Shown one piece after another: positions 23,481 to 62,728 of a stretch of DNA of 64,000 nucleotides (position 1 is its first letter; each line of letters opens with the position of its first letter). The stretch is from Euglena gracilis. Taxonomy: Eukaryota. The DNA is taken from positions 13,682,387-13,746,386 of the forward strand of contig CP154954.1 in NCBI GenBank assembly GCA_039621445.1, read 5' to 3'. A model generated the notes under the pieces. The model ran no database searches, had not been told where the DNA came from, and saw only the letters and a list, made by a program, of their open reading frames with translations. The position numbers and the translations under genes are program-made.

Positions 23481-23567
23481 GGAGGGTCTGCCCCTCAGCC
23501 CTCCCCCACCACAGAGACTCCCCTCTATCAGGCTTCTGCAGGCCGGGACCGCTCGCGCACAAAGCAA

Positions 23568-23798
<231 letters not shown>

Positions 23799-28279: not shown

Positions 28280-28720
<441 letters not shown>

Positions 28721-36955: not shown

Positions 36956-37068
36956 GACAGCTCCGGCTCCGCGCAAGACCCCAGTGAGGTCCTGCTTTTC
37001 TTTGCCAGAGTAGGCGGATCATAATCGTCCTTTTGGCACGGTGCTGCAACCAATTGTTCAAGCTGATC

Positions 37069-39710: not shown

Positions 39711-39714
39711 CACC

Positions 39715-40160: not shown

Positions 40161-41260
40161 CAGTTGTTACAAAAGCAACAGATTCCCCCCTCAGTGGTTG
40201 ACAATTTGTTAAGTCACGATCTTTCATTGGCGAGATATGACTCTGCCTTCAGGCTCCTGTGGGGAGTTTTGACCATGTCCCAGCTAGACCTCAACACCGT
40301 AAGCCCAGAATTAGTCGCTTCTGGCATCATAAAAATTTTCACCTTCAGTGTGGCCCAGGCCAGGAATGATTATAGTGCTGTGGCCCAGCTTCCTGGTTTT
40401 CACATGTTAAGGTTTTACCCCTGTTGTCCCCCTAAAAAAGACAATGGAACACATCCACCCCCAGGTATTCGTCTTTTTGGAATCCTGAATCATTACTTCA
40501 GAAGTTGGCGGCAGCACCTCCCCCAGAGTGCCTCAGTGACCTGATGGACCAAGTCACTTTAAGTTTCAGACTCATATGTTTGCATCGCTCAGTGGACTTG
40601 AGCAGAACCTTCAGGACAGTCTCCGGAGGTTGATGGCAAGATCTTTTTCTTGGTCAGAAGAAAGGGTTGGAAACAGACTCAGTGGGAGGAAATTCGCCAA
40701 ATTCCTTCAAGTCCTAATATTTGCTCCTGGTTCAACATGAAAAACTATGTCAGTTTGACATCTCACTGTGCCCCCCGGGGGACATTTAGTATGAAGTTTA
40801 AAACCTCTCTTTACCCTCCTGTCTGGAAAAACCATTGGGAGTTTGACAAAACGATTGTTGGATAAACACGGGGCACCCCCCCCAGTGGCCCCCCCACTCC
40901 ACCAGGGGGGCATGAGTGTACATGTATAAACTGGCAGGTTTGTCCTCTGAGGAAGTGTGCCAAAATGGAAAATGGAAAAATGTGCAGGCCTTTTCTTCCC
41001 ATTATTTGCGGTGGGAAGCGGGAAAAAATGTGGCGGTTACTGTCCAAAAAATGGTGCACAAAGCCTCACTGGGGTCTTGTGTGGAGCCGGAGCTGTCTCG
41101 GACTCAGGTGAAGAATGTTCCAAGAGGAAGGGACATCGAAGGCGGAGCACAAGACGACAGTGAGCCCGCCACCCCGACCCGGAAGAGAACAAAAAAGTTG
41201 GTCAGCCCCCCCCCCCAAGAAATTTCAATTCACCCACAGACAGGCCAGATGGTCCTGTAA
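40160..41260 (+). pseudogene. DIRS tyrosine recombinase (fragmented)
   Basis: ARYDSAFRLLW, RLICLHRSVDL, and C-terminal GLSSEEVCQNGKWKNVQAFSSHYLR with the candidate catalytic Tyr. Confidence 0.75.
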
Positions 41261-42888
41261 TCCCCCGAAGTCTCAAACAGAGATCGAATGCAAGTGGCCC
41301 AATCTCAAGTTGCAGAGTATGCTCATGGGTTGGTTGTGTACCTGCATACCCCCGTGATGTTGGCTTTGAAGTTTTAGCCTTCTGGTCTGTTTTCTTTCCC
41401 TGTGTGCAAATGGGCTGCACATTTTATGCACAGAAATTGACCGTTGGACGACGTCCTTTGTCAGAATAGATCTTCGGAGTTGAGCAATCCAGGGGGTTGT
41501 GTGTCTCTGGCTGTTTTCTGTGACACAAGAGGACACTACCGGTGGTTGGAATGCCGATGGTTTTCGTACGCACGCCCCCCCCCCCCCCAGGTTGAGACCT
41601 TGGGACCTCCCAGCCCCGCCCTATTGGTCTCCCAGGCAGAAGCTGAGCCCGGGCTTGCTATTCCCCTAAACTTCTCCCCCACCCCACCGGCGTGGATCCA
41701 GACTGACCAGTTTTTGTCCACGGCCTGCATTGTGCCAAAGATTGGCTTCCTGTTCCGGCCTTTTTCTGAGACACCGAAGGCGGGAAGTGAGTGACTGGTT
41801 TCAAAAGTGACTGCCTGGTCTTTTGAAACGGAAATTGACCCCCGGGTGGGGGCGGGCGGGCTTGGTTTCGGAATGGTGTCGTCCTGCCAAACACAAACGT
41901 CTCCGCCCAGCGGTCCTGCCAGCCACCCGGATGCTGCGTCTGTACATTGTCCTGCCTCCCCCCCCGCCCACCCCTGCCGGTTCAGCCCTGCCACGGCCCC
42001 TGCCTCGTTCGCCCCACGGGGGCTTGGCTGTGTTGCTTTCCTCTACCTTGCGAATTGGCTGCCCTGCTTGCCTTTGCGGGCGTTTTCCTCTACCTTTCGC
42101 CTTGGATTCCTTGCTTGCGGTTGCGTGCGCCGCTTCATCAACTGAGGACATGAACTTTCCTCCTGAGATGAACTGCCCACCGTACGGTGTGGCAGCGGAA
42201 AGGGAGTGTGCTCCGCGCGCGCAGTTCTCACAGCTTCTCGGCCCAGTCTCCATGGTTTAGTCCCTCCGTTTCCTCCGCACAGCGTGGGGTGACCTCACTG
42301 GAAAGTTTTGCATCAGGCTTTTCTGTGGATGGAGGAGTAGGTTTGGTGTGGATGTTTTTCTTTTTCCTCTGCACAGTTGGCTTTAGTGTAAAAGAAACCC
42401 AAATAACACGGCGGAATGCCAAGTTACAAGAACCATACATTTATACCCCCTGTCCAGTGTATTTGGGCACTGCTTCCAGTGCCGTTATGAATTGATGCCT
42501 CAAAAGGGCTGTCAGGCCAGACCATTCGGGCTGCGCACACTCTGGGGGTGAGGTCCTGGTTCTTTTGCCGGCTTGTTGTGTCGTTGTTTTTTGGCGGGTT
42601 CTTTCTTACTGCTTTTTTTGTCAGAGTTGGCGGATCATAATCGTCCTTCGAACGACAAAATGAGTTTCACAATGCTGTATTTACTATCTGAAGACGAAGC
42701 AAAATACAACAGTGCGTTGCGCACTTTCTTGCTGCAGTTGGAGAAAAGCGAGAGAGCTGGAGAGTGTCCCTTCAGGCTGGCCGAGACGTGGACATACGCT
42801 GCAGGAAGGCGCCACCGCCGAGAAGAAGGGGAAGCAGAAGGTCGCGACAAGCGCTGCGATGGCAGAGGGCGACGAGGAGGACGAGGAG
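41247..42888 (+). repeat. Long direct repeat, copy 2
   Basis: Aligns with 35307-36955. Confidence 0.95.
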
Positions 42889-44960
42889 TTGGTGGCGGCG
42901 GAGACAACAGCGAAGCGGCTCCCCTGGCAAGAGGATATGACCCCACTTCCCCAGGAGCTGTCGGCCTGCCTCAAGCAGGCGACGGTAGGTACAAGGTTAC
43001 CCTGGAAACACGTCCTGAACCAGCTGACGAAATTCCAGGACCTAAAAACGCGAGCTGAGGACAAAAACCACAACCAGGACACCAAGGCCCCCATTGACAA
43101 GACGCTCAAAGGGGTACAACAAAAGGTAATCCATTTGATGAGGATTATGGCCACCAACTGCTGTCAAGTGGATGCATTCCCAGAGGACTATCGAGTCCTC
43201 TCCCAGCAACTCTTCTTCGCCATGGCGGAGTTGGAACAAGGCCTTCTATGAGAACAGAAGCGTCGAAGTATATCTGCAGCAAATGTTCTTTTTCAAAAAA
43301 TATCTCCAGGTCAAGAGGACTCAGAGCCGCTGTACAGTGCTGGTATGAACACACCAGTTGGCAGGGTGGAATGGTGGCATTTTATCACCCCCACAGGCAG
43401 CCGAGGCTGGAAATTGAAAGGAGGATTTAAGGGGTTCAAAGGAGGACTCAAGGGTGGAAGACGAGGCTATGGCAGCCAAGTCTGGAGAAGTCCCTGGACA
43501 TCCAAATGGTATGGCACCCAGTCAAGTCTCATTCCTCCCTCCTGGTCCATTGCAGAACAAAGGGCAGAGGGAAGCCCTGACATCCAGGCCCCTGAAGAGG
43601 GTACAAGTCAGCCCCCAGTTTGGGGTGAACAGAAGTCAAGCCACCATGCTGGGGAAGGAGCAAGGTGCTCCTACCACACGTTCAACATCAACCAGCCCCA
43701 ACCAGGGGGCCCAGGGCCCCAACCTGCAGCAGCAGCCAGAGGAGTGGGAGAAAAGGATGGTAAACATTATCCTGAGTCAGGAAGAAAGATGGAAGGAGTC
43801 CCGTCTCTTTCATTGATTGAGGGAATGTCTCCCCTGGTGGAAAACACATGCTCACGCCAAAGTGTTGCAAATGTTTCACTTTCCACCTGCCCCAGCAAAA
43901 GAACAAGCCAGAAATTTCATTGGCCCCAGAAATTTTGGAGGACTGACAAAAAGTCAAGAGCTGTCAGAGTGTTGACAGATCCACAAAACACCAAAACTTT
44001 GGTGCCATGGTTTGTGTTGCCTAAACCGGAATGAGGGGGGGTGAAACATCGTGTCATTGCAGACCGAAGGTAACTCAATCTTTATTGTTCCCCAGAAAGG
44101 TTTACCCTGGAAAAACATCCACCATTTTTCCCCCTCCTAGCTTGAATGGGGTGCGGGAGGTGTATGCCAACCCCCCCTGGAAAGTCATAAAACCCTGGCT
44201 CTCCAAACTTTCCATGAACAAACAGGTAAAACGCCTTTTAATAACCCACATGTGGGTTTCAAGTGCATGGTGGCCCCTATTAACAAAAATGTCCAAACCT
44301 GAGGTGACAATGTTAGTGGTTCCTCCCTGCCAAGAGAGAACTGTTTGGGGGGAATCAATGCCTGGGCCAAAATAGTCCCTGGCCTGCAGCATTGTTTCTG
44401 GTTCCGTTTGGAACAGCAAAAAATGTGAAATTCACAAATTGACATTATCTTAAAAAGTACCTCCACTTTAATGAGATATGTCAGAGCCCTTAGAAAATTG
44501 TACGTGCTGCTGCAGGAAAAGGGTCTGGACCCCCTGCAAGCAACCACCTTGGACACTGTGTCCAGCATCCTGGAGCTGCACAAGATGTCGAGTGCTGAGG
44601 CCAGAAACGCTTTATTTGCTGTCACATCACTCCCTGGTTTCTACCATGTTTCTTTTCACCCTCTGCTAAAGAATGAGAGATCCTGTTGGAACAGAAATGT
44701 TCATAAATATGCAATATTTTGGGATCCCTTACCCATCCTACAGAAACTGGGGGACTGGGGGACACTATGTCCACCAGTGAGTTGATAATCAAAATAATTC
44801 TGTTGTTCAGACTTTTGGCCTTACAAAGAGGAATGCACCTGGCCAGAACACAGAGATCTCTCTCTGTGGTTGGTGAAAAAAATTGAATTTTGGTCCAGAG
44901 AAAGGGCTGGAAAGTTCCATAGTGGTAACAACTTTTGAAAAATCCTTCTCAGAGGGCAGC
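41247..44960 (+). mobile_element. DIRS/PAT-type unit 2: divergent subfamily, RT/RNase H deleted, truncated by the LINE
   Basis: gag 42712-43251; RT start LVPWFVLPK..KHRVIAD jumps to MT VYANPPWKVI (~44150); YR 44420-44900 (RYVRALRKLY, KYAIFWDP). Confidence 0.8.
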
Positions 44961-44964
44961 AACT

Positions 44965-45605
44965 GGTTAGTCTGGCCGCGTCCAGCCGCCGGCCAGACTA
45001 ACCAGACGCTGCATGGCCGGGTACAGGGCGGCGGAGAGGGACTCAAGCGTCTAGTGTCGGTCGGGGGACAGGGCGGCCACCTCTGGCGAGGCTTCCCAGG
45101 AAGTCAGGAGCTCGTTCCACGCGGAGCACTGCAGGAGGTCGGCGGAGGGGCCGTAAAGGAGGGGCGGTGGGCGGTACACGGGGGGACGCCAGTCCAGGCG
45201 TCCGGCGGAGAGGGACAGAGAGACGAAGCACGGTGAGTGACCCCCGTCGCGGAAGTCCGACTCCACGGAGGCGCCGCGGAGGAGAGGCAGGGCAGCGTTG
45301 TTGGCCAGGATGAGGTCGATCCAGGAGGCAGCCACCTGGCGGGACAGCTGCGGGGAGTGGAAGGTCATCGGGAGGGGGGCTGCATGGGCATCAGTCCACG
45401 GGGCTCCGGGACCCGTGAGGTGGGCAGAGCATGGGGCAGGGGGTACGCTGGCGACCGCTGCAACTGCTGTAATCCCGGGAGGGCAGCACGGAGCCGTTCC
45501 AGTCCCCCAGCAGCAGTGTGGGTACCTGCATGTCTAGAGAGTGCGAGCGTTGCCGAAAGCGAGGTCGAAGCTGACGCGCTCGCCACCGCCGGCCTGCATA
45601 CGAGT
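44965..45605 (-). pseudogene. LINE APE endonuclease fragment, inverted relative to its RT
   Basis: Minus-strand PTLLLGDWNG, TFHSP, SWIDLILAN, DGGHSPCFV (APE motifs GDFN, RID, SDH equivalents). Confidence 0.8.
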
Positions 45606-46226
45606 CCGTGAAGGGGGTGCACCTCCGTGGCACGCTCGCCGAGCTGCACCGGCTGGAGCTCCTGACTGCCCGCCCGCCCTGCACCGGCCCATGGCACTGG
45701 CCATGGGTCCGGTTGCTGGATTCCCTCGCCGCCCGCGGTGTCCATCTCCCCGCACGACCGTCCCTGCCCTCCGCAGCGCCATCTCCGCAGCGTCTGCCGC
45801 CCGCCGCTCCGCCCTGGACAGCGTCCTCGAATCCCACCGCCGCGCCGGCCATACCCGGAGGCGGGACGCCCTCCCCCAGCTGTGGCCTGAGCGCCCCGCA
45901 GTGATCTTCCGCTGGCTCAAAGCGGAAGCCCCTCCATTTTGCGCTCGGCCCATCCTCGACGCCTCTGGCTACCAGTGCATGACCCATGCCGCCGTCGACC
46001 AAGTGGTCCGGTCCTTCTGGGTGGATAGTGTACTATGGCAGCACGCCTCCCAGGACCGCGCAGCCCGCTGGAGCGCCTTCCTCTCCTCGGAGTTCGGCAC
46101 CCATCTGCCGACCGCCTCGTGCCCCTCGGTTCCCTGGACGGCAGAGCGGGTGCGGTCCGCCCTCTACAGCACGCGGGATCGCGCCGCACCGGGCATTACC
46201 GGCGTCCACCTGGCAGCGTGGAGGAG
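45606..46226 (+). pseudogene. LINE ORF2 linker and RT start (left of Gypsy insertion)
   Basis: AVIFRWLK...WTAERVRSALYSTRDRAAPGITGVHLAAWR (xAPGxDG-type motif); continues in frame at 62733. Confidence 0.8.
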
Positions 46227-46526
46227 TGTACGTCTGATTCCCAATTCCCAATTCCCAAAAGCCTTCGCTTTCGCCTTGGCGCACCTACTTGGGAACTGAA
46301 AATCAGAGTAACAGTAAAATCCCTTTTCCCACTTCCCAAGAAGCAAAGCACAGAGCAATGCAGGGAGGACGGACTGGATAACCAAGTCCGGTCCGGAGAA
46401 AAGGAAAGACAAAACAGAATACCACCTGTGGAGAGAGAAGGGGCACCCATTAGGAAATCCTAATAGGATCTGCTTCCATCCTAACTTCCTCAACGGAAGG
46501 GGACAGAAGCATACGCCTGGTACACA
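46227..46526 (-). repeat. 3' LTR (300 bp)
   Basis: Differs from the 5' LTR by one substitution, a 1-bp indel and one TTCCCAA unit. Confidence 0.95.
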
Positions 46527-46536
46527 TCCCCCTCCC
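46527..46536 (-). promoter_or_regulatory. Polypurine tract
   Basis: GGGAGGGGGA on the minus strand, directly before the 3' LTR. Confidence 0.85.
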
Positions 46537-47344
46537 AGGGCTATGCCCGAATTCTCCTTTGGACCAGGCATTCTGGCCACAGGGATTTCGGACACAGACC
46601 TGGTCTGTGGCAGGTGCACCCTGGCGCATCCACAGGGGCCCTTTCCGTCGCACAGGGGTCCACTCAAAGGGGGGGGCGGAAAGGAGGGGACCTAAAAAGC
46701 CCAAAACGCGCAAAATGGTTTCACCTATTCGGCGGTGGCTTATGGGTATATAGTATATTATAGCCCACTTGGGAAAATGGGGCTGGCATGTTTCCTTGCC
46801 AAGCAAACCCATCCACCCAGTTTGGGTGTGCCCAAGGCACTTGGGGTTGGGTCCATGGGCATTCCAGGAAAACCCATGGGGAGGGTGTGGAAGGAGGGGG
46901 CCTCTGACCAGTCAAACCTGGGCAGGGCGCATGGCCAGTCAAACCTGACCACGCAAAAGGAAATCTTACTCTACAAAACCAACTGCCGGCGACAGCATTT
47001 GCCCCGGGGGGAAAGTAGAGAGGAGTGGGGGGTTGTATTAGGCCAAAAAGTTGTGCTGTCTGGCAGCCTTAAGGCCTCAAACGGCCGAAAAGAAAAGAAA
47101 GGGAAAGGAAAAGAGGCCGTCGGCCCTGTGCGCTGCGTGTCGCACGCCCGCGAGAGGGGAGAGGGGAGAGGGGTGTGCATGCATGCGCACGGAATCCTGC
47201 ACATGGCAGCATCCCGGTGGGAACTTACTAGCGGCGAATACCGCAAAGGGTCTTCGAAGGGGTTGTTCGGGCGAATACCCAAACAGGGTGTCAGGCGAAT
47301 ACCTGACGAGGGTGCTGAACGCCGCATTGGCGCTCACAGACACC

Positions 47345-50300
47345 TCACCTGCCTTTATCGGCTGGGCGTTCGCGCACCTCACGCCAGTAGTCGTGTTGGT
47401 GGTCCCCTAATGGGTCCTCAACCAACTCCAGTTGGCGTGGAGAACGCGGCGGAGCTGATTCACTACGAATGGTGTTTAGCTCCGGATCGTTGACATCAAA
47501 GGAAGGGGTCTCCCAGTCCTTGATCCAATTATCCGGTAGCTTCTCCCTGGTACGTTCAGCATGATGCTGAAGATACCGTTGGAGCTGCTCCCAGAAAATT
47601 CTAGGCAGCATCACCGGCCAGATGATGTAATTCATCCGGGGATGATTCGCAGGCACCTGCGGGGGCATCCCCGGGGTCTGCTTGAAGTTGATGTCATACA
47701 TCCACCTCGCTGTCCGAGCTCTTGCGGTATGGGGCCGTAATACAGCCGCCAACCAACCTCTGAAGTCCACCAAATCGTGTTCTTCAGGAGGCCACAGTGG
47801 CAAGGCGTATCCGCCATGCTGACGCTTGGAGAACAGGGGGTAAACCTGTGTCTCCCAGTCGCCATCAGTCCAGAGGTAAGGCATTCTTGCCTTGGCGTGT
47901 TCTTCGACGGCGAGGCGCATTGCCCCAGCGTCGATCTGGAACTCACGGGCCATTCCCGTGTGGCGGTAGCTTTCTACCTTTCGGAAGTCGGAGTGCTTCA
48001 GGCGGCCTTCCACCTGCTTGTACTCCTTCTTCCACTTCTCCAGTGTCTCCCAGTGCTGAGGGACAGTGGTGGTGACTGCTCCATCAGCAGTCTGCACGAA
48101 CTTGGCTCCTATACAGTTGATGCACAAGGCAGGGATATCCCTGTCTTGAGCATTCTCACTGTAGGAGTAGTTCAAGCTGTGCTTCCACGCGTTCAGGCAC
48201 TCGCCACATACGAGCGCCACACAGTTCGGCACATATGCCCTGTGATGGAACCACGAGGATTGCACCTGCCGCTTGCACACATGCACAAGCGGTTGGTTGT
48301 GCCGCACATGGTGGCACACGGTGCACGTCCAGGCAAAGGACGTGCCGTGATGGAAATACAACACGCAGTCCTCACCAAAGTACTGTGCCAGTACTCTTGG
48401 TGAGCGCCTATTCCAGAATGTCCAGGTATGTTCCGGGGCATAATGGAAAGGTTCTCCTCGGACGAAGAGGGGCTGAATCCATTGATTCAGTGACCCTTTC
48501 TGGTGCCTAATAGCAGCCAGTTTCTTCGTCCTCTCTTCCACGGTGCCTAGTCTGGTCAGGATATCCTGAGTCCAGAGCTGGGCATCCGCAGACACGGGAG
48601 GAGAAGCAGGTTCATCCTCCTCCTCATCCGTCGATCCGGTGGAAGATTGGGCCTGTCGACCACGAGCCTTACCTTTCGGTTTGCTCTGGCCGTACCCGGA
48701 CGATGCAACGGCCGAAAAGTCGTGCATTGTCGTAGGGCCTTTTGGCTGTCCGCCAGTCTGACCTCCAGCGCCACCTTTCGGTGGTGGTTTTCCATCACCG
48801 CCTTTGGCAGGGGGCTTACAGGGTGCAGCACCCGGTTTGCCTCCTTTCGGCTTCGCACTCCCGGAATCAGGAGGCGACGCCTGCGGCTTACTCCTGGTAT
48901 CAGGAGCCGATGGTGCCGGAATAGACGTTTGCCATCTGGGCGAAGCGGGCATCCTGACCGCTGGGTCGCGCATGACGCTCCGAGGGGTCGGCACACGTTC
49001 CTGGGGTTGTTCAGCCGGCCGTCGCCGAGCAGGTTCATCCTGTCCGACGAGGCGTGGCACTGTGGTCGTCATCGGAATCGGTGCTTCCACAGGCGCTGGC
49101 GCTCCCAGAAACTCTGCCATTGTCCTCGGGACGGCAGGGACCCTGCGCGGTGTCGGTGGTCGTGGGGGTATCTCCTCCACTTCCATTTCGACATCCGGTC
49201 TAGGAGGTTGATCCTCCACAACCGCTGGCGCAGGTGCTAAGGGAGGTTGATCCTCCGCTGTAGCTGGTGCGACAGATGGCTCTGTCGGCTGGGGATCATC
49301 CCCTGAAGATGGTTGCACTGCTGCCGAAAATGGGGGTGCGGGGACACCGACATCTGGTGTCTCCACGACCTCAGCGGCGGAGCTTGATGCTACGCCTCCA
49401 CCTCGTGGCGTTAGTGCAGCAGCCACGGCAGTAATGCCGGTGACTACGGCGCCGAGCACACGGCCTCCTAATGAGGTGCGTGCTGCGGGGCTGGTAGGTT
49501 CTTCGAGGATATCCTCGACGACCATACCAGTCACCTCGGCTGGAGGCTCAGCCGTTGGAACAGGCGTAGCAGCCACAGGCATATCCCCTGCGGGTGCTTC
49601 GTCTGGCCTATGCTGTGCCAGAGTAGGCAGAGCAGCGTAGAGGATATCCTCCACGTTCTCACCTACCTCCTCAGGAAGTTCCTGATCTCCACCTACGGGT
49701 GGACAGACAGAAGCCGCCGCGGGAGCCGGGGAAACCGAACGTTCCCCTTCCGCTCGCGGGGAAGAGACGAATGATACAGCCGTTCCTGTCGGAGACGGCG
49801 GCGCTGCCTCCAGGATGGTAACGGAGGGGCTGCGGTCGCGTTCCTCCCGCCGCGGAATCGCGGTGGTGGAAGCGACTGACGCCTCACGTCTCCTTCGCGC
49901 CAGAGGTTCATCCTCCGGGGCGATGAAGGCGCACAGATCCTCGGGCGAACGAGGATCGTCGGGGTGCCATCGGCATCCCTGAGCGTCCGCCAGCCTGTAA
50001 AAGGCCAGCGTACTGCTGCTGGCGCTGTTGGGCTAGGGTGGCGGCCATGATGGCTGCACCCAGGCGTTGGCAGGCCTGTTCGGGCCCAGGAAGTCGCGGT
50101 AACGCGTGTCTTCCCAGACCTCGAAAAAGCCCTCCTCGAACTCCTGAACGCATGCCAGAATCGGCATACGCTGTTCGAGGATGGCCTTCCGGTGACACAT
50201 CAGCGGAAGGAATACCTCCCGGTCGAGGGTACCGCCAAACTGCCGCCGCAAATGTTCCTCCAGGGTGATATCGGCCAGGTGCCAGTTGGGGCGCAGGTGG

Positions 50301-52861
50301 CCGAGAATCCGACGACGAGGACCCTCGATGGCATCACCGTAATCCGGTGGCAGGCTTTCCATTCCAGGCCTATCGTCCTGGGGGTCACGGAGATGTATAT
50401 ACACCTCCATGACATAGGTAGTCCAGGCTCGCCACCAGAACTGCTGCAGCATAAAAATACGCTGCTTGTGGACGCGGCGACTTTTGCCCTGGACATCCGG
50501 GGCGTCGCGGCACACATGCATAAGCATGCGGCGTCCCATCTCCAGGCCCGGGTTATCCCGAGGCGGTGGAGGACTTCCGCGCACGCCGAATCCCCAGAAG
50601 TCGACAGGAAATTCCTGCCGGCAGTACTTACAGCAGAGGTCATACCTCTGCGGGTAAGCCAGGGAAACACGCTTAACGCGGAAGGTGGAGCCGTAATGGC
50701 TCACCAGCCACACCTGGAGGTTGTTGCACCACAACACCTCGATCAGGCGTTCGATGTCGGGGTGTAGTGGGTAGAATTCCCACTGCACGCCGAGGGGTCC
50801 GACTGTATGAATACAGTCGAAGACTGCCTTCAGCCTTCGGGCCAACACACGCTGGTCCCGAAAACCCAACTGGTGCAGGTAACTGCGACCAGTGGAATCG
50901 CTGAAGAGACCCCAGTTCTGGCAGGGGTATCCCAGCCAAAACCAGAGCTCCCAGAAACCTGGCTGGGCATCCAGCAAGGGTCTGCCACCTTCACCTTCGA
51001 AGGCGTACAGATCTATTCCGTAATGGAATAGTCTGACTCGGTTCTCGGTGTGGCGTAATACCACATCGATGACTGCTTGTGGAGGGGTGACGGGGCGGTT
51101 TCCTGCAACATGGTAATCATGCTGCATTCGCCAGCCTTCGTCCTCCAGCTCCTCCTTGAACCTGAGCATATGCTCAAAGTCCGAGAGGACTTCTGCTGGT
51201 TCTTCTTCTTCCTCACGTGCTGTTCCCTTACCTTTACCCTCACCCTTCCCTTTGCCGGCCACGCCTTTGCCTTCTCCCTTGCCTTTGCCTTCGGCCTTGC
51301 CGGCGTCCTTTCCTGTATGGCGAATACCAGAGGGTCGGGCGCTCGGTGCCGCAGGAGTCGGTTCGGTTCCTTCCCATTCCATCTCTGGGGAGGGACCTGG
51401 CCGCTCCGCTGCACGTCGCGGTGATGGCGTGGCTGGGCGTTGGTGAGGAGTCTGGCGTGGGCTTGGCTTCGACGCGGGGGGTCGCGGCTCCTTCCATACC
51501 GGAGGGATCGGCGGTGGCATTGCGGCAACAGGACGGCTCATCGCCACCTGTGCCTCTGCCGGTGGTCGTCCAGCCGGGGTATCCTGGCTGGCTTCCACCT
51601 GCATCGCCACACCGCCTTCCGCGTCCCGTGGGCTGGATCACCTGGGCTGTGGGGTAAGGTTCTCCGTAGTCCGGTCGCGCTTCAGGGTGGCAGGTAATAC
51701 TGCCACACCTGCCGGGGGCTCACCGGGTAATACCGGGGTTGCCACCCGCAGCTGCGGCTGGTACGGATGGTATGGGGTGTATCCACGGCCCTGAAGGGCA
51801 GCCAGAGAGGAGTAATACCTCGTCCGGTGCTTTTCAGACGCGAATACTGGCTCCTGCAGGAAGTGCCGAGCAAGCTCATCCTGCTCGGTTCCCGGAGGTG
51901 CCATGTGATAGTAGGGAGTCTCCTGCCGACGGGGGATATCCCCAGTCTGGACAGGAGCTGCACTGGGCGGTCGAGCTGCCTCACGGTGGGGAGGTTCATC
52001 CTCCACCACTATGGGCTCCGCCTGCCGCCGTGGCTCAACGCCAGGGACAGGGGCGACCGATGATGCTTGTGGCATCCAGTGCATGAACATGTGTTGGACG
52101 TATGCCTCAGGGGGCACGTCCGACTGTCCGGCTGGGAGCACGCGTGCGCCGCGCGGGTAATCCGCGTGCGTCGCGTACCGCGAGACAAATTGCTCCGCTG
52201 GCGGCTCGCGCGGCGGCATGCGCTGCGGCGAGGGCGGGCGAGCAAAAATTCTCGTCATCCCAGGTGGGACATGCACAGCCTCACCTACCGGTGGGGGCGT
52301 GTGCTCACGCATATGCACGGTGTGGGATCCCACCGGCGTCTGCGTTTGCAGCATGGGCGGCACATACACGCCCAGGTCCATCATGGTCTCGCCAGGCTCG
52401 AATCCGGAATCGGATGCCGACGAGAAATACCGTCTCCCCGTCATCAGGGCTTGACCACAGGGACACCACTGAGCCACAGGGGTGTTGGCTACTACCAACA
52501 ACTGAGCACAGTATGCATCCCAAAGGGCTTGCATAAAGGGCTCCGTTGGGGGGTGTGCGCACATACGCATCGCCCGCTCCAACGTCTCCGTAGTGCGGAA
52601 GATCATCTCTCCCGCATACGGGGGCAGGCGCGATCTGCGCTGCGCTGGTGGCTGAGGTGCCGGCTGCTGGACGGCAGATGGATCTGGTACCGCATATGCG
52701 GACCGGCTGCTGGTAGCCGCGGCGACTACCGGGGCTGAAACCCTCTCAGCATGTGGGGCACCCGGAATCGGGGCCTCAGCATACTGAGGGTACTGGGGGT
52801 ATGGCGCGCCAGAAGGCTGCGGCCATGGTGGACCTGGTCCAGGTCCGCGCCCAGGCAGCAT
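47345..52861 (-). pseudogene. Accessory ORF of unknown function, ~1,840 codons in one frame with two internal stops
   Basis: ORFs 51638-52861, 50033-51610 and 47345-49654 share a frame; the gaps are open apart from TGA 51638 and TAG 50033. Confidence 0.8.
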
Positions 52862-52928
52862 GATGCTACCCGAACGACGACGACAACGAAGGGTAACCTT
52901 GTTGTCTGTCGCTTTGAGTGCTGGTGCA

Positions 52929-52991
52929 CTGAAAAAGGTAGGCTTCTATCTTAATCAAAAACTCTGCGAGAAAGGTAGAGAAATAAAGAAG
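52929..52991 (-). promoter_or_regulatory. Candidate splice acceptors for the accessory ORF
   Basis: Minus strand CTTCTTTATTTCTCTACCTTTCTCGCAG and CCTACCTTTTTCAG upstream of ATG 52861. Confidence 0.55.
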
Positions 52992-53058
52992 TGCAGGGGG
53001 GGGGTATAAACGCGAAACATTCACATAAAACACACACATTCTCCAAAACGAAATCGTT

Positions 53059-53457
53059 TCAGAAAGTGTTTATGTTTATGTCTATATTATTGCGCTTGTT
53101 CCACAGCTTCCAATCCTGCTGGATATATCCAACAAAACTGGATGCTGGCTCCCAAGTGTCCTCCTCTGGCCCATACCCTTTCCAGCGAACTTTCCAGTAG
53201 TGCACACCCCTGTCGACCTTGTGGTCTATTATCTTATCGACCACAAAGTCGTCCGTTTCAGGTAATCTGGAACGGGGCTTGAAATATAGGCAGGGGATAG
53301 CTTTTCCGTCTGGGGGGCTTAGGTACGGTTTGAAGTCGTCCATATGGACGTCCTCAATCCCGTTGGGCAAGGCAACTTTATATCGCCCGCTACTACCTAA
53401 CCTCTCCAAAATTTCGCATGGGCCGAGCCAAAGAGGATCTAGCTTGGAAGACTGCAT
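53059..53457 (-). pseudogene. Integrase C-terminus (GPY/F-like) and chromodomain
   Basis: [12 protein letters not shown]...[19 protein letters not shown]...[18 protein letters not shown]. Confidence 0.92.
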
Positions 53458-53558
53458 GCGGGTGCGGTTATTCCGTACCCACCTGGACTATACACAGGTG
53501 TGTTGAAGTTCTGTAAAAAAGATTTCCGTTTGTTGAAATGAATTTCTGTGATACGTGA

Positions 53559-54416
53559 TTAGACTGCAGAGCGGAGTAATTCCACTTCTGCAAACCACGT
53601 TTCACAGCTGACGCTACTTCGGGCGGGTCTCTCCGAGGGGATATCCCCTATGGCCGGAGGGTCTCGTCCGAAAACAATTTTGTACGGTGAGTGTGGTAAT
53701 ACCAACCCTGGCAAGGTATTGATGTAAAATAAACACCAATGAAGAACGGATAACCAATTCTTACCCGAGTCAGCCAGTGAAAGGCGAAGCATATTGACAA
53801 CGAATTTCACGGCTGCCTCGGCTCTACCATTGCCTTTCAGGCGGTATATAATGGAAAAATGCTGCTCAATGCCGAGTAAACCGCACAAAGTTGTGAAAAA
53901 CCGCGAAGAGATCAAGTGATCTTGATCACTCACGATTTCGTTCGGTAAACCCATTAAGCAGATACATCTCTCCAGGAATATGGATGCCAAAATTTGGGCT
54001 GTCAACCCTGCTTTCCGGCATGGAATGGCTACTATGTACTCACTCAGCCGACAGACGACAACAAAAACGTAATCGTAAATTTGGTCATCTGATCCTTTGC
54101 AAGGTTCAAGTTCGAGAAAATCCATGCAGAGGGACGTCAAAATGTCTGGTGGTACGGGGAAAAAGTCCATCGTACCAGGGGGGGTACCTCCGCGCGGTTT
54201 CACAGCCTGGCTAATTTGGCACCGTTGCGAAATTCGCAAACAGCGCGAATATAAATCTTTTTCACTCAGGGTTGTGCAATATCTGCGACCCACTAGTGAA
54301 AGAAGTTTGGGGGCCCCAGGGTGACCATGGTTGTGATAGCTCAAAATCACATCATCAACCAGGTCTTGGGGTATACAATATTTATAACCAGATTCATTCC
54401 GGAAAATAAGTCGCAA
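53559..54416 (-). pseudogene. Gypsy integrase core
   Basis: HNHGHPG zinc finger (second Cys changed to Ser), MDF, IVSDQD, GNGRAE. Confidence 0.92.
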
Positions 54417-54436
54417 TGGTGATAGAGAGTAATTCT

Positions 54437-56110
54437 CTATGGGTTCAGTCGATTCACAATGGTACTATATATAGGGTCACGCGAATAATCCCATTCGCGG
54501 AAAAATAGGGGGGTAGGAGTTTCTGTACGCGTAATGCGACGGGGTCCGGCAGTGTGTCCACGCCGGCGCCTTCCACGCAATGGTGAAATGGCGATGCTGC
54601 GATATACCCGGGAAACGGGTAGTGAATCGAGCATGTTGTCCGCAGCGTCGGATCGACGTGCGAACTGGTCAGCCTCATGGCTGCCATGAAAAGTCGCATC
54701 ACCCTCATCCGGGTTCCCAGGATAATACCAGGGGGCTCGGCTGAGAGGATCCGCAACTTTTTGCGTGTGACCTGGGGTATAGATAACCACCAGGTTAAAC
54801 TGGCTCAAGAACTCATGCCATCGGCATCTTCTGCCCACTGATGACATGGCCTTGTTCAGGTCCTCGGTACACCAGTGTTGAAGGCTCTCATGATCCGTCA
54901 ACACAAGTATCTGGACCAAGCTGCTGGCTATCCAGCTGCGGAATTTCTGGAGAATAAGCACAATGGCATATGTCTCCTTTTCGCGAATGCTCCATTTAAC
55001 CTGTCCTTTCCCGTTGTCGCCCTGTAGCTTCCTGCTGAAGAAAGCCACAGGTCGGAGCTCATTTGCCGCATTATGCTGGCTAAGAACTCCGCCAACAGCG
55101 TAATCGCTGCTGTCGACCTCCAGGACATACGGTTTATATGGATCCGCGATATCGAGAACCACGTTCTCGAGGAGCAAGTCCTTGATTTTATTCAAGGCCT
55201 CGCGCATTTGGTCATCCCAAATGACTTTTGCGTTATCGGGTGTCCGATTTTTGAGTTGTCGGGTTAGGGGTACCGCGATTTTCGCGAAATCTTTCATGTA
55301 AATCGCGTAATATTGGGCTAATCCCAAAAATCCCTTTAAATGCGTTAAGGTCTTAATGACCTCAGGAGTCCATTTCTTAATGGCCTCCATCTTACTGGGT
55401 GCGGCTTTACGCTGCCCGTTGCTCAGGATATGCCCGCAAAACTTAATAATTTTGCGAAACAGGTGCATTTTGGAACCCTTCACAAAAAGCAAATGCTTTT
55501 TGAACGCGGATAATACCGCCCGCACATCGCGATAATGCGGTTCGAGGATATCCTCGCCCGATTTCGCGGATGGCGGTTGGGTTCCCACCAGTACATCATC
55601 GATGTACACCAGAGCAAACGGTAAATCGCGCAAAACCCACTGGATCATGCGTTGAAATATGGCTGGGCCATTCTTAACACCCATGGGGAGTACCGTCCAT
55701 TGGTACACACCCTTGGATGTCACGAATGCCGTGTACGGTTGCGAATCAGGATGCAAATGCATCTGATGGAAGCCGTCTTCCAGATCAAAGATTGACCACA
55801 ACCGGTTATCCGATTGTTTGGTGATCAAATCCTCGATCAGCGGTAACGGGAAGGGGTCATCCTTCGTTTGGGAGTTCATATACCGGTAATCAAGCACTAG
55901 TCTCCACTTTTTCTGACCAGACTGGTCAGCGGGTTTGGGCACCACAAAAGCTTGTGATGTCCACTCGCTCTTGGAAGGGATAATTCACTTCCGCTGGATG
56001 AGCTTCTCAATCATCTCGTTGAGAGCTTGTTCGCGTTCACCCGAACAACGGAAAATTTTCCGGTGCATGGGTTTAGCGCCATCCTTGAGCTCGATTTTGC
56101 AAACACCGAA
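54437..56110 (-). pseudogene. Gypsy reverse transcriptase - RNase H
   Basis: WRLVLDYRYMN, FDLEDGFHQM, LPMGVKNGPAIFQ, YIDDVLV, VDSSDYAVGGVL, EKETYAIV, TDHESL; in-frame TGA at 55985. Confidence 0.95.
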
Positions 56111-56319
56111 CGGCCCGCGAATCGCGGGGTCGATGTCGCAGGCGTAAACTGGATTATCCAGTACACCATGGAATTCACGAGTAATTCGCGAACAATAGTC
56201 AGCAGACTTGGAGTGTTGGTCCGCACTCTCAATGACCGCAGAAATCTGCGTTGAGGGTGTGGCATCCCCATCCGTACCAAGGTGTCTTGGCACACGCACA
56301 TCGGATATTCCGAATGCGT

Positions 56320-56730
56320 CAAAGAAACAAACGCGAAAAATGATTTCTTTAACCGGTGGTAATAATATACCACAAAAATCCTCAAATAGTGGTACATCAG
56401 CGGGGAAATTCCACCAATGGAAACACACATAGGATAATTGGTGAAACCAATCCGCATTCGGATTGACGGGTATGAGGAGAGCTCCTCGCGCTTCATCGCG
56501 GAGGATTTTCTCCACCACATCCGGGATAAGTTTTGGGGGAGGGTGCATCCAGAGCACCGTATCACCCCAAAATTTTAGAAATGCGTTGGAATGTCGCGAC
56601 CAATATCGCGACAAGCGCGCATGCGCTTTTGATGAAAACGCATCAATTTCTAACGACAATTCGAAGGAATCAGCCAAAACCGCGATTTTGGAGAACCATT
56701 CCTCCAAAATACGGTATTGACCAAAGTTAA
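56320..56730 (-). CDS. Dam-like (N6-adenine) DNA methyltransferase domain inside Gypsy pol
   Basis: QYRI...IDAFSSKAHARLSRYWS..NAFLKFWGDTVLWMHPPPKLIPDVVEKIL...ALLIPVNPNADWF is colinear with the DIRS MT at 39715-40160. Confidence 0.8.
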
Positions 56731-57569
56731 AGGCGTTCCATACGCGCATCGCGTAGGTGTCGACCTGGTTCGCGGGCTGAAGAGCGGTAACGCAATTCAG
56801 GGATCCGCAAACATAGGTCAAGGGTGTGTCATCCACACTCCCTAGGGGCATTCCCGAGGGTTGATGGGTTGGATGGGTGTATACCCAATCCATATCATGC
56901 CAGATGGAATTGGGGGAGGTGTGTGACACGGATTTCGCGGTCCCAAACAACAAGGCAATACCTCGTTGTTGGAGCACTTGATGTACGGTCGCGCATTGTG
57001 ATCCGCAACCAAGTGTATGGTTACGCGAAATCGGGATTAGTGTTGGTGTTTGGACTAGACATCCACAATCGAAATCTGGCTGGGCGGAAATTCTCCTACA
57101 GTGCACACATTGGAAGGAAGTGTCGGAGTAGTGGTCCTGGTCGCGCATGTTGGTCTGGTGAGGGTGTGTGTAAAAGTTGGGATGCGCTTTTGAAGCTGCT
57201 GGGGGGTGTACAGATGTATCTGAAAGCGATACATCTGCTGGAAAACGGGGTATTGATGCAGCTGGGCGACTACTCGACACCGTGATCACTTCAGGCCTTT
57301 GGGCTTTCGTCTTGTAACCCAGTGAAACGAGGGGGGTACCGCTACTCGCTTGCCCTGCCTCATGGGGAACGGAAGTTGGTGTGTCTACGGGCAGGGGGTG
57401 AACTTTCTCGGTACACCCGGTGTAGAAAACGTTGGTTGGTGTGGTTGGTAACGGGGTAAAAGTTTTCGAAAACGGTGTGGAAAAATTGGTGGTCGTCGCG
57501 GTTGACGCCACAGGTGATGAAGGTTTGGGGGGCAATGAAGAGAATGGTGATGTGCGCAAACCGTGGGAG

Positions 57570-57930
57570 TGGCAATCCACTACCAGACGGTGCTGACGTA
57601 AAAAGGGGTATCCCAGAATTACGTCAGAACCATGGATTCCGGATTCATATCCTCAGGTATCCGGAAAATTTTGCGGTTGGGGGGGGTGTGAGTGGTGCTT
57701 GGGGATGAGGGGTAGGACAATGTCCAAAAAGCATCCCAAGTCACCACCGCACATGGGGGTGTTGTCAGCCGTCGTAATTTTGATCGGCTTCTTGGCTTTC
57801 ACCAAAAGGGGGGTTGGTATCAACCCGAACCGAAAAAGTAGTGCAATGCGACAACCAGTGTCAATGAGAATTTTGACTTTTTCACAAAAATTTTGGATTT
57901 TGATTTCTGCTTGGACCAAAAGTTCCATGG
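57570..57930 (-). pseudogene. Aspartic protease
   Basis: KILIDTGC...ITTADN...(TGA 57653)...DVILGYPFL, in frame with the MT and RT. Confidence 0.88.
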
Positions 57931-58197
57931 GGGGTAAGCAAAGTGAAGGGTCTGGCGAAAATACGTTTTCTTGCCAGCTTTCCCATGAACCCTTTCCTAC
58001 TTTGCACAACATTCCGAGCGGAAAGTTGGAGTGGGGGGTGGGGGACCCGAAAATATTCCGGGTACCGACCAGAAAGGCAGATGGGCCTGGGGGGCAGGGT
58101 TGATCAGGTCCTACCTCCATCTGTTCATCAGCCCAGAGGTCCGTGCCCTCGGACCTCGGGCTCCCCTACTCCAGGTCCGAACCGGCCGAATAGGCGG

Positions 58198-61100
58198 CTA
58201 TGGGCCTTTTAGAGTATAAACGTATTTCAACGTGCGCACCGCCATGCGGGCCTCGTCGAAATCGGTATCCGTGGTCTCATCCCCCTCCCTGCCCGAAGCC
58301 GGGGTGTCATCCTCCAAACAAGATATCTTGAAACCGACTTTATGGCGGTTGGAGGAGTGACCCTTGTCACCGCGATTCATACCGCGATGACGTTGGCCAG
58401 GGCGGGGAGAACGAGAACGCGGACATTTGGATGAGTGGTGATCACTCGATCCACAAAGCGAACACCGCGATTTGTGTCGCGATTCTGAGTAACGGGGGGA
58501 TCGGTTTCCCGATTTCCCGTCAAACCGTCGTGGTGACCGGGTATCCCGTAGACCATGACCGGTGTGTCGGGGTTTTCCCGATGAGGATCGCGAAGAAGAT
58601 GATCCGCTTCGCGAACGCGATCGCGATGTCTCGCGATGAGAATCATGCTTCTTGGCCGGGGCACCGGGTGACCTACCCCGAGGGGTACCGTGTTTCCGCT
58701 CATCGCGGAACGGGATCCGGGGGCTAATACCACCGGAACGGGGACCCGATGACCGTGAATTGCCCGATTGGCGTGAAAACGCGGAGGAACCCGAACCTCG
58801 TGATGAGGTCGAGCCTCGCGGACTCTGAATACGCTTACGCGCTTCAGGATTAGGACATTCCCGAGACATATGTCCCGATTTGTTGCACAAAAAGCACACT
58901 TTATCCGTGGCTTGGTCCGAAGAACGCGGGTATCGCGTTTTCGATCCCGTGTTTGGTGAAGTGGGTGAAACCGGTGATTTTTGCAACGCGTTCACCGAAC
59001 CAGCCGGTAATCCAGCGGTTGGGTGTGCGTTATACGCGGATTTAATCTGACCAAGAAGCTGTGATAGCTTCAATTGCTTGGAAACGTAGTTCCAGCGTTG
59101 GTCAAGAGTCATTGGATGACTCGCCAACTCCTCACGGTGGATATCCTTGATGAGGCTAGGCGTGAAATGCATGAGAACAGCATCAAACTGTTCGCGCATT
59201 TGCTTTTCACTGAGTTCATCCACTTCAGCGGCAAGTCCTTACCATTTGGCATACCAAAGGTCAGTGGACTTCCACTTGCGGTCGGGTGGGGCGCCTTGCC
59301 GCCACTTGGTCTCCAGGGTAATCCTAGCGACCAAACTTGAACTGGTGGAAGCGTATTGCTCCACCAGGTCATCAAAGGAAACGCGGTAGCGAATCACGAG
59401 TTGTCGCGCGCGTTCCTTCTCATCCCTTGGGAGGCAATCGATGAATTCCATCTTGATCACCTCCGGGTTTGTGTCCTGGGTTGGCCCTTTTAATGCCCAG
59501 TAATACTCCGAGTCCCGGAAAAACTGTCTCCATGTGGTTGGATCACCATCCCACTGGGGTTTCACCTTATTCGCGATTGCGATGGTGCCCTTGAAGTCTT
59601 TCTGAGAAACCCAATGACCCTCGGTGGTATTCCGCGGTTTTGGGCCTGGGTACGGTCGAGCACCAAGCGTATCCTTTCCGGATTCTTGTCGGAATCGCAA
59701 AATTTCTGGTGAAGGTGAATCCTGGTATCGGAAATCCGGTCGCAAACCCTGTTGGTCACCCGTAATACGGGGACTCTCCGGTGTGGGGGTATGTCGCGCA
59801 TGCAACGTGTGACCCACTCCCGGTGTACGGGTTTGGCTCATTCCACGCACAAGCATGGAATGATGGATTTCTTGGTGGGGAATTGGCGGAATCGCCGTGT
59901 TTTCCGCAAATTCGGTTCCCGTAATGGGAAATTCATCCGAAAACTGGGTTTGGGTTGTGGACAAGGCCAATTGTGGCACAATTCGCGGAATCGCGGAATG
60001 TGACACTCGGGACACGGGTGGTGGTGGTGCATGTGCACCCAGAGCCGGGTTATGGGAACGCGACTCTGGAACATTTGGCGCATCTTCGGCAATGCATACT
60101 GCCGAATTGCGGTGTGAAACCTGCTGTTGGTTGGACACAATATCCAAACCCACAGACAAGTCATGCACACTTTGCTCCAAATGCTCAACGAGTTGGAGTT
60201 GGCCGCAAATACGGTCAACTTCGTCCTCCAAAGCGCGAATACGCTTGCGGTAACGGGAAAAGTCATCCAAGTGCGGAATCCTTTCGGAAATTCCGGTAAC
60301 ATCTTGGACAAGTTTCCCGTGAGACTTATCCAATAAATGGAGTTGTCCCATTAATGCTTTTACAGCATTTGAGAGAATCTGCAAAGGTGATGTCACCTTG
60401 GTTGGTGTGGTGGTGGGTGCAACCGGTGCAGGGTTATCCGACAACACGGTTGTGGTACCCATGGACAAATTTCCGGGTTGTGGCTTATCCAGAAACGCGG
60501 AAATTCGCTCATCCAACCTGGTAATCTCACTTTGCGTGGATCGGGCATTCCGATTCACCGATTCCTCAAGCCGTAATAGGCTGTTGCAAAAATCTTGCAA
60601 GGTTTCCTGATTGTTAGTGAGCATTCTGTCATAAAATGCCTTGAAATCAGGGTTCTCGGTAATCCGAGAACTGGAACCTGCAGGTAGAGACTGCATTTCC
60701 GTTACTTTGGTAGACACCGATGCATACCGGGTCTGGAGTTCCCCAATAGCAGTCTGAATATCGCTAATGTCCGGAACTCGGTGGGAAAGTGCGGAATAGC
60801 TTTGTTGCAAACCCGCAATGGCCGAGTTAATCCCGCCAATGTCGGATTGCAACTGCAACTGCAGGGAATCCTGCCGTTGTGCTACTTCCGCTACTTTCGC
60901 GCTCAGATTGGATAATCCAACCTGATTCGCGTCACAATAGCAGGTTTTCTGCTCCAAACGGGAAAGTCGCTCCTCCAACTGCCGCACATACGTGTGGGGA
61001 GCAAAATTCTCGTTTGCTTGTGACTGGAATTGCCGAAACTTTTCCGTTTCATCGCACAACTGCATAATGCGGTGTTGCGATTCATGGAAAGTTGCGGACA

Positions 61101-62141
61101 ATGTGGTGAAATGGTCCATAGACACAAATCCACCACTGCTGGATGTTGCAGACGAGGGATCTCGTGCATGCAACTGTTGTTGCAAATGCGACAACGCGGA
61201 TAAACAGGACTCCATTTGTCCCGATAAATATTGTAGTGAGTCATGCAAGTGCAGAAACTTGGAGTCATTCCGGGTTTCCGCTTCATGCATGCATTCACTA
61301 ATTTGCCGGAAGTTTTGCGGGAGTTGTTGGCACATTTTGTCAAAGGTTTCCTGAAAGTTTGCAAGGTCAATACCCGCACTTTCGAAATTCCTCTGACAAT
61401 ATTTGCCAACTTCCTGCAAGTAATTCCAGAAGTATTCCAGCTTGGTGAAGACATGTTTTTGGTTGTCCTCATCAAACTGGAGCACTTTGTTGAGTGCGGT
61501 TGCACAATCTGCAACGCATTGTTGCACATGGTTGAACTGCTTCACAAGGGGGTGATCCCCTGCAAGCCGAGCAACGATATCCTGCACATCCTCAGCAGTG
61601 AGGAGCTCCCCAGTTCCCTTCCCATAGCCATCCATGGGTTGGGACGTACCAGAGAATTCTGGTACCACTAGGCGAGTCTCCGGTTGCCAAGGTAGTGCGG
61701 GATAGCACCCAAGATCGGGTGGTGGTGGCAAAGCTCTGTAAGGGCTTGCCGGTGGAAGAGCGGGTGGTGGTTGAAAGAAACAGGTGTTTCTAGCCCACCA
61801 TCACCAGAGAAGCCCAGTGGCGGAATCACCACGGGTCTCTCCGGTGTGCGCAGCTGCACCATTGCCGCAGACAGAGGCGAATACCCCCGTTGTGGCAAGG
61901 TGCGTGCGGAAGAGGCCGCATTAGCCTCTGAAGCCAATGATGTGGAGGGCTCATCGCCGACCACCGTCAATGATGACAAGTGTTGCAATTGTGACAATTG
62001 AACCAATTGTGCCTCATCGGCGTGGGAACTGGAAGCACTTTCACATAAAAGCTTCCAATCCCCATTTTCTTGGTCAATATCTTGCAATGATGCCTGTAAT
62101 AAGGCATAGTTGAATTGATGGTTGGGGCCTGTGCTTTGCAT
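58198..62141 (-). pseudogene. Very long gag: coiled coil, capsid-like region, two CCHC knuckles
   Basis: ATG 62141; frameshift ~61735; heptad-rich region; KPQWDGDPTTWRQF; in-frame TAA 59239; CFLCNKSGHMSREC and CSLCGSSDHHSSKC. Confidence 0.85.
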
Positions 62142-62330
62142 CTTTCTGATGACAAAAACAGCAAAAACCCACAAAACTAAGCAGTTGTGCTGGCACCAGA
62201 GGGGCTGTAACGGGTAATACCGAACAGAACCTTCCGGAGCCTGCTCGTCTGCTTAGACGTTGACTAGAAGCCGGGAGCTGACGCTGCGACCGTGTAATAA
62301 CGGTGCAGGGGATCTCCGCTGCCAGTCAGC

Positions 62331-62420
62331 GTAGGATCGAACAAATCTGCTACCAAGTGTAATACCTGGTAGCCTTTCTGTTTGTGAAGTGTGTATAGGA
62401 TCGTAACCAATCTGCTACCA
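62331..62420 (-). promoter_or_regulatory. Two primer-binding sites complementary to initiator tRNA-Met
   Basis: TGGTAGCAGA at 62411-62420 and 62346-62355, each followed by CGATCCTA (complement of the initiator T-arm GGAUCG). Confidence 0.85.
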
Positions 62421-62422
62421 AG

Positions 62423-62728
62423 TGTACGTCTGATTCCCAATTCCCAATTCCCAATTCCCAAAAGCCTTCGCTTTCGCCTTGGCGCACCTACTTGGGAACT
62501 GAAAATAAGAGTAACAGTAAAATCCCTTTTCCCACTTCCCAAGAAGCAAAGCACAGAGCAATGCAGGGAGGACGGACTGGATAACCAAGTCCGTCCGGAG
62601 AAAAGGAAAGACAAAACAGAATACCACCTGTGGAGAGAGAAGGGGCACCCATTAGGAAATCCTAATAGGATCTGCTTCCATCCTAACTTCCTCAACGGAA
62701 GGGGACAGAAGCATACGCCTGGTACACA
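62423..62728 (-). repeat. 5' LTR (306 bp)
   Basis: Matches 46227-46526; TGTGTAC...GTACA on the minus strand. Confidence 0.95.

Follow-up and report, generated by a model that had tools for sequence, protein, structure and literature searches.

The analyzed stretch of Euglena gracilis DNA (64,000 nt; hereafter, the window) contains a single LTR retrotransposon of 16.5 kb, which occupies positions 46225-62728 and is read, as are all its features given below, from the minus strand. Its 5' LTR (62421-62728, 308 bp) and 3' LTR (46225-46526, 302 bp) are direct repeats with 300 of 301 aligned bases identical, and a 5-bp target duplication, GGAGG, lies outside both of them. Inward of the 5' LTR there is a PBS-like tract, TGGTAGCAG..., presumably resembling the initiator tRNA-Met primer-binding site, and a PPT-like purine tract, GGGAGGGGGA, precedes the 3' LTR. 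The order of the encoded domains is gag(CCHC)-PR-[Dam-like domain]-RT-RNaseH-INT-chromodomain. The element has the LTRs, the Gypsy-type RT/RNase H and the DDE integrase of non-DIRS LTR elements, as well as the chromodomain of chromoviruses, located C-terminally to the integrase after a Tf2-type SH3 domain; it is a young Ty3/Gypsy chromovirus. Searching the window with tblastn reveals neither the element nor the Dam-like domain a second time.

The first ORF of the element (59242-61800, 853 aa), Q/L/S-rich and coiled-coil-like, lies upstream of gag in the same frame, with a single TAA between them; its comparison with Pfam yields a weak NPV_P10 match alone (25.4 bits, below the cut-off). The gag part (58201-59238) carries a CCHC zinc knuckle (zf-CCHC, E=2.4e-6, 27.8 bits with the cut-off of 20.8). 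The N-terminal part of the protease (57653-58165) contains ILIDTGC and is stopped inside the protease by an in-frame TGA at 57653-57655; the Pfam match is weak here (Peptidase_A3, E=0.1), and the DTG motif has been identified from the translation. The subsequent ORF of 555 aa (55988-57652) comprises the remaining protease and an S/T/P-rich linker (together 56765-57652), the Dam-like methyltransferase-fold domain (56312-56764, residues 10-160 of P0001, recognized by Pfam, PHROG, the family profile and the structural model) and the beginning of RT. RT-RNase H (54440-55984; RVT_1, E=5.3e-28; RT_RNaseH_2, E=2.7e-25) is followed by the integrase with its H2C2 finger and rve core (53562-54464; rve, E=2.1e-7; Integrase_H2C2, E=5.4e-5; each slightly below the cut-off) and by the Tf2-type SH3 domain and chromodomain (53059-53487). 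The chromodomain, already suggested in the initial annotation of this DNA, is confirmed by a match to Chromo (PF00385, E=4.7e-11, 42.9 bits with the cut-off of 25.1).

The linker between the protease and the Dam-like domain contains a Cys motif, CxxC...CxC, at approximately 57070-57140 (residues 171-198 of the ORF 55988-57652). The motif is kept in the nearest relative of the element, P0002 (see below), while the surrounding linker is not, and it may form a small zinc-binding module preceding the Dam-like domain.

Downstream of the chromodomain, still inside the LTRs, there is an orphan region, ORF3 (47348-52945), consisting of three ORFs (435, 534 and 895 aa) that share a frame interrupted by two stops. 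It spans 5.6 kb and about 1860 codons, and its product is P/A/R-rich with ordered-looking Cys/His-rich parts. Searches in Pfam, the Atlas and the word index have identified no homologue of ORF3, and neither a DNMT nor any other known domain is recognized in this 5.6 kb tail. The element is unusually long because of ORF3.

Microsatellites (TG/CA and TA-rich dinucleotides) and G/C runs occur across the window and create long spurious frames (THTH..., YIYI..., PPPP), for example at 17726-18439, 19342-20010, 23110-23763 and 27768-29121. Rfam and tRNA scans over the whole 64 kb yield no match.

The protease, the Dam-like domain and RT-RNase H had been described as lying in one reading frame. The common minus-strand frame is indeed there, but in-frame TGA codons interrupt it twice, at 57653-57655 and 55985-55987. 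The latter codon is private to the window copy: in all four public runs considered, nearly all contig depth at this position corresponds to a sense codon, and P0002 carries a residue here. Reassignment of stop codons as an explanation of the in-frame TGAs has been rejected, as the runs and P0002 read a sense codon at 55985-55987; moreover, all three stop codons terminate ORFs in the element. The integrase frame differs from that of RT-RNase H in the window, while in P0002 it is continuous, and other copies diverge from the window at 54447, reading on through the RT-RH/INT junction. The chromodomain frame differs again from that of the integrase core, and there is no overlap between gag and pol. 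Judging by its reading frames, the window copy is defective and unable to make Pol, because of the two in-frame stops, the frame changes between RNase H and integrase and before the chromodomain, and the lack of the gag/pol overlap. Since the LTRs of this defective copy are nearly identical, it has probably been moved by machinery supplied in trans, or else its master copy was defective already.

The bounds initially proposed for the Dam-like domain, 56320-56730, are close, but the confidently folded part is somewhat different, 56312-56764. The IDAFSS motif, located by motif search, is at 56630-56644, and the motif IV tetrad, HPPP, at 56534-56545. The domain matches the Pfam family Dam (PF05869) with E=6.7e-5 and 23.1 bits, not reaching the gathering score of 28.1, and the PHROG family annotated as DNA methyltransferase (phrog_111) with E=7.8e-6. 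A family profile constructed from 114 database homologues, with the window sequence and P0002 left out, recognizes the domain with E=1.4e-51 over 56312-56716. The HMMER scan of 1.84 billion representatives yields 431 homologues with E<=1e-3, of which 87 reach E<=1e-10 and 10 reach E<=1e-30, and 10 of the 20 long homologues scanned pass the Pfam Dam cut-off. The assignment of the window's domain to PF05869 is made via transitive homology and predicted fold only. Sequence searches of PDB, both by phmmer and with a 57-sequence profile, produce nothing meaningful, that is, no solved structure is matched by sequence.

The expectation that a Rossmann-type methyltransferase fold would be found by Pfam and structure prediction has been borne out. 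The AF2 model based on the 57-sequence alignment has pLDDT of 87.5 and pTM of 0.79, with strands alternating with helices (single-sequence AF2 reached pLDDT of 37.8 only). The best matches of the model in BFVD are phage DNA N-6-adenine methyltransferases (E=1.7e-9, TM 0.61; 21 matches at E<=1e-3). Among 48,161 PDB representatives, the top matches are all class-I SAM methyltransferases, with adenine-N6 enzymes leading: the Z-scores are 10.8 for PCIF1 (Foldseek E=6.9e-4), 8.8 for METTL5 and T4 Dam, about 8.5 for KsgA/Erm, 8.4 for M.TaqI and 8.3 for E. coli Dam, though Z of 8-11 is not specific, being common to many Rossmann methyltransferases. The domain is thus predicted by the model to be a Rossmann methyltransferase fold, with phage Dam, PCIF1 and T4/E. 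coli Dam as the nearest structures. We are highly confident in the identity and architecture, that is, in the segment being a Dam-like (PF05869-type, phage-derived) methyltransferase-fold domain.

The nearest relative of the element, P0002 (1208 aa), has been identified in a word-indexed collection of 5.8 billion sequences (E=6.5e-80; 66% of the residues are identical in the domain region) and contains the Dam-like domain, RT, RNase H and integrase in one uninterrupted ORF. It is the sole homologue retrieved by the word-index search for longer proteins; the same search for proteins of similar length yields no homologues among 583 candidates. The scan of metagenome contigs for DNA of the relatives has matched 366 pattern stretches, none of them confirmed. 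As for the domain context in the 20 long homologues, the Dam-like domain is upstream of RVT_1 in six, three of which also have RNase H and integrase, and upstream of Copia-type RVT_2 in two; one has the DIRS-like order RT-RH-MT, nine contain Dam only, and in two no family is found.

Public sequencing runs also cover the element. Among 24 runs listed, 20 contain all or some of the stretch, and at least half of its words are present in 15. In four runs, contigs aligned to the stretch cover all 30 bins (three runs) or 29 of them (the fourth one), and the bins of the domain are as deep as those of RT. In run X1 alone, 41368 contigs align to the stretch at likeness of at least 85%, and the family is therefore very repeated and diverse there. 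P0002 and the four runs demonstrate that the domain is present in other copies of the family, and, as initially proposed, it is an integral, family-wide part of the chromovirus pol between the protease and RT. These data show that the family, which is highly repeated, has the domain as a fixed and conserved module.

One of the public runs is a leaf-litter metatranscriptome, in which the presence of contigs in an RNA library is not proof of transcription. RNA-library contigs of run X17 cover the domain, which is no demonstration of transcription.

The window also contains remnants of DIRS-like elements, known to carry a methyltransferase (MT) domain. DIRS elements have MT after RT-RNase H and use a tyrosine recombinase; the MT domain of DIRS/PAT elements was reportedly described by Goodwin and Poulter. 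The first MT-like remnant (39507-40209, plus strand) belongs to an element with the DIRS/PAT order, RT followed by MT, as RVT_1 is found upstream of it at 37949-39172; it has a TAG stop and a frameshift at the NPP motif. The second one (44025-44372, plus strand) reads YANPPW. No Pfam family, tyrosine recombinases included, is found in ten plus-strand ORFs at 36565-45233, where the elements are degraded.

The Gypsy-borne domain had been reported to match the DIRS MT of the window motif by motif, and this has been confirmed in part. The six-frame search with the 114-homologue profile ranks the remnant pieces as the three best non-self matches (39507-39860, 44025-44372 and 39886-40209, with E of 0.002, 0.006 and 0.034, respectively), and the profile alignment is colinear: VDMFAS corresponds to xDaFas, YANPPW to WinPpf, and LLICPLW to the ilivPvW strand. 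The same motifs are thus recovered by the profile, but direct comparison does not retrieve them: in pairwise alignments of the domain with the remnant pieces, the observed score is matched or exceeded in 8, 455 and 113 of 500 shuffles, that is, the likeness is at chance level, and tblastn of the domain against the DIRS remnants in the window gives no match. As far as can be told from sequence comparison, the Gypsy domain and the DIRS MT domains belong to the same superfamily, being distant relatives. The DIRS elements of the window as the direct donor have been rejected, since by the shuffles, tblastn and the profile they are too distant, and the tree (see below) puts the domain with Gypsy-borne relatives.

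The presence of two DIRS-like MT remnants in the window, at a distance of 12-17 kb, could suggest that the segment was captured from these adjacent elements as an isolated nested fragment, or is a frame open by chance. This reading is refuted: P0002 has the domain at the same place with 66% identity, four runs cover it, its likeness to the DIRS remnants is at chance, and the tree puts it with Gypsy-borne relatives. We consider it to have almost no probability.

A particular feature of the domain is its motif IV. Active N6-adenine methyltransferases have (D/N)PP(Y/F/W) in this position, where the window reads HPPP, and the question raised earlier, whether HPPP or NPPx is the consensus, can be answered: the family consensus is NPPF, while HPP recurs in relatives. 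In particular, P0002 has HPPL, and HPPP is present in two other representatives, P0009 and P0043, among 150 listed. As P0002 shares HPP, the variant is not a private mutation of the window copy. In the column of the catalytic Asn, the 114 homologues have 84 Asn, 19 His, 9 Cys, one Tyr and one Phe, and hence the catalytic Asn is conserved at 74%, compared to 76-97% at the 18 best-conserved columns. The window has the consensus residue in all 18 of these columns, but His in the Asn column.

The aromatic residue (F/Y/W) that closes the tetrad is retained in 65 of the 84 Asn rows and in only 4 of the 19 His rows; the association of His with the loss of the aromatic residue does not represent independent events, because the His rows are phylogenetically clustered and the counts come from related rows. 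The His rows also keep fewer conserved columns than the Asn rows (on average, 0.80 versus 0.915, again for related rows).

Cys instead of the catalytic Asn is observed in 9 of the 114 homologues, in eight of them as CPPF, and a supported clade of six rows reads CPPF, FAPF or CPQF.

The tree of the domain has been constructed for 83 sequences with the tetrad columns left out, and it groups the window's domain with Gypsy-borne relatives. The window pairs with P0002 (SH-aLRT 99), the next neighbor being P0003 with NPPI (96), and all three belong to a clade of 13 rows (95), mostly with NPP[I/V/L] and some with HPP. His is found elsewhere in the tree too, including an eight-row clade of the HPP[N/D] type (SH-aLRT 95). 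At least eight changes between the Asn, His and other states are needed to explain the distribution.

Comparison of the window with P0002 shows that the core of the Dam-like domain is far better conserved (76% identity over 139 kept columns) than the indel-bearing linker. Differences between copies have been counted for the best-supported 40 of 481 differences. Within this set, 6 synonymous and 3 non-synonymous differences fall in the folded core, 12 and 4 in RT/RH, and 7 and 6 in the whole stretch 56228-56791, where three of the non-synonymous ones are in the disordered tail. As a rough sign, purifying selection appears to act on the domain.

LTR retrotransposons other than DIRS that carry Dam domains, called DAM-LTRs, have been described by Fernandez-Moreno et al. 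in a preprint of 22 May 2026 (bioRxiv 10.64898/2026.05.21.726589), whose authors state that they know of no earlier identification of these domains in LTR elements outside DIRS. Five DAM-LTR lineages are defined there, one of them chromovirus-like, and repeated capture from DIRS is argued. The novelty of a Gypsy-borne Dam domain, implied in the initial annotation, therefore does not hold, and the window element belongs to an already published class, as far as it is described in the main text of the preprint. In the model proposed there, the Dam domain of the transposable element (TE) puts 6mA on RNA-DNA intermediates or recruits the host AMT1, and, as the outcome, new copies sit in 6mA-marked permissive host chromatin. 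6mA is reported to be enriched on DAM-LTRs in two ichthyosporeans and Euglena, while the gain of 6mA is absent when DAM-TE domains are expressed in E. coli (bioRxiv 10.64898/2026.05.21.726589).

The possible function of the domain can be considered against this background. The Dam-fold domain would be made within Pol, directly before RT, and, given this position beside RT, its likely targets in cis would be the replication intermediates of the element itself or newly made insertions. With the HPP[P/L] tetrad replacing NPP[F/Y/W], methyl transfer would be weak or absent, and the main role of the domain could be to bind SAM, nucleic acid or a host partner. As the fold-defining residues are kept and the tetrad has changed at both of its key positions, we favour such a weakened or inactive domain with a mainly binding role over a fully active DNA enzyme, and the latter over an RNA-directed PCIF1-like enzyme, although even the favoured role falls slightly short of an even chance. 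Its strongest form is a retrotransposon-borne pseudo-methyltransferase, that is, a constrained Dam fold with the tetrad decayed to HPP[P/L], non-catalytic and massively amplified in a chromovirus lineage, the change from Asn to His and the aromatic loss recurring in several TE lineages. This form is a possibility to which we assign roughly one chance in three. Such a protein would hold SAM or nucleic acid, or recruit a host 6mA writer to insertions, and, if this is true, TE-borne Dam domains are under selection for a function other than methyl transfer, or for more than methyl transfer.

The opposite explanation is that the domain is a fully active N6-adenine methyltransferase of DNA or of the RNA:DNA hybrid, with His replacing Asn at the target amino group and 6mA placed on cDNA or insertions. 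It agrees with the retention of all 18 best-conserved columns and the apparent purifying selection, while the presence of His in 19 of 114 homologues and in the supported eight-row clade suggests its long-term tolerance. His is both a hydrogen-bond donor and acceptor; because of this capacity and of the supported clade of eight representatives that keeps it, His may be functional rather than degenerate. The excess of 6mA on DAM-LTR copies in three species (bioRxiv 10.64898/2026.05.21.726589) also fits an active enzyme. Still, both key positions of the tetrad are altered, Asn to His and the aromatic residue to Pro (Leu in P0002), the His rows keep fewer conserved columns and mostly lack the aromatic residue, and the E. 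coli experiments of the preprint have shown no 6mA gain, so that full activity on DNA seems unlikely. The negative E. coli test for DNA 6mA would fit an RNA substrate as well, in which case the domain could be a PCIF1-like adenosine methyltransferase acting on a cap-adjacent or internal adenosine of the element's transcript or genomic RNA. The best solved-structure match is the cap-specific PCIF1, rRNA m6A enzymes (METTL5, KsgA/Erm) rank alongside DNA Dams, and the homologue P0125 has a weak PCIF1_WW match; but the sequence profiles match phage DNA Dam, the best viral folds are phage DNA N-6-adenine methyltransferases, and Z among adenine methyltransferases differs by only about 2. We regard an RNA-directed enzyme as improbable, more so than the active DNA enzyme. 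The overall explanation, combining the DAM-LTR identity and the fixed module with the proposed role in cis and the weakened tetrad, is the best one as a whole, and we hold it with good, if not full, confidence.

The combination of a chromatin reader and a DNA/RNA writer fold in retrotransposons bears on the way mobile elements engage host epigenomes. With the DAM-LTR class in print, the value of the window is narrower: it provides a complete, very young and anatomically clear example, with the LTRs, the target duplication and the PR-DAM-RT order, and documents a lineage with His instead of Asn that the main text of the preprint does not discuss. The relatively weak conservation of the catalytic Asn, compared to the fold-defining residues, bears on whether these domains methylate at all, after the negative E. 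coli assay reported in the preprint.

Among known systems, the likeness to METTL14-type pseudo-methyltransferases would be one of mechanism only. METTL14 belongs to the MT-A70 family, keeps the methyltransferase fold with a degenerate (D/N)PP(aromatic) tetrad and serves as a binding scaffold; the window's domain is Dam-like and outside this family. Phage Dam (PF05869/phrog_111) provides both the best sequence-profile and the best viral fold matches, while the window's domain differs in being below the Pfam cut-off, in its fusion into a retroelement polyprotein and in the altered tetrad. With the MT of DIRS/PAT elements, which the preprint also mentions, it shares the Dam-like superfamily, and xDxFAS, NPP[WF] and the LLI-P-W strand are aligned by the profile; the differences are its position before RT and the presence of the DDE integrase, the LTRs and the chromodomain.

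The closest system is the DAM-LTRs, above all their chromovirus-like lineage (bioRxiv 10.64898/2026.05.21.726589), with which the window element shares the Ty3/Gypsy LTR organization and a pol that has a Dam domain of the eukaryotic type as well as a chromodomain. It encodes a Dam-type (PF05869-like) domain as these elements do, with the window's Pfam score being sub-threshold, and the preprint describes the domain as a five-stranded sheet with flanking helices related to the DIRS MT. The Asn-Pro-Pro triplet, called almost universal there and not used as a criterion, is replaced by HPP in the window and P0002 (HPP[P/L]), and no DNMT is found in the 5.6 kb tail of the window element. The words "histidine" and "inactive" have zero occurrences in the main text of the preprint, from which the His variant, the weak conservation of Asn relative to the fold residues and the PR-DAM-RT position are absent; hence this position may or may not match that of the chromovirus lineage defined there. 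Elements with the Ty1/Copia order, by their translated domains, carry the Dam-like domain too: in P0127 and P0129 it is upstream of the Copia-type RT (RVT_2), in P0129 between the integrase core and RT, and this arrangement may be the one of the preprint's lineage in which the integrase and RT lie on either side of the Dam domain.
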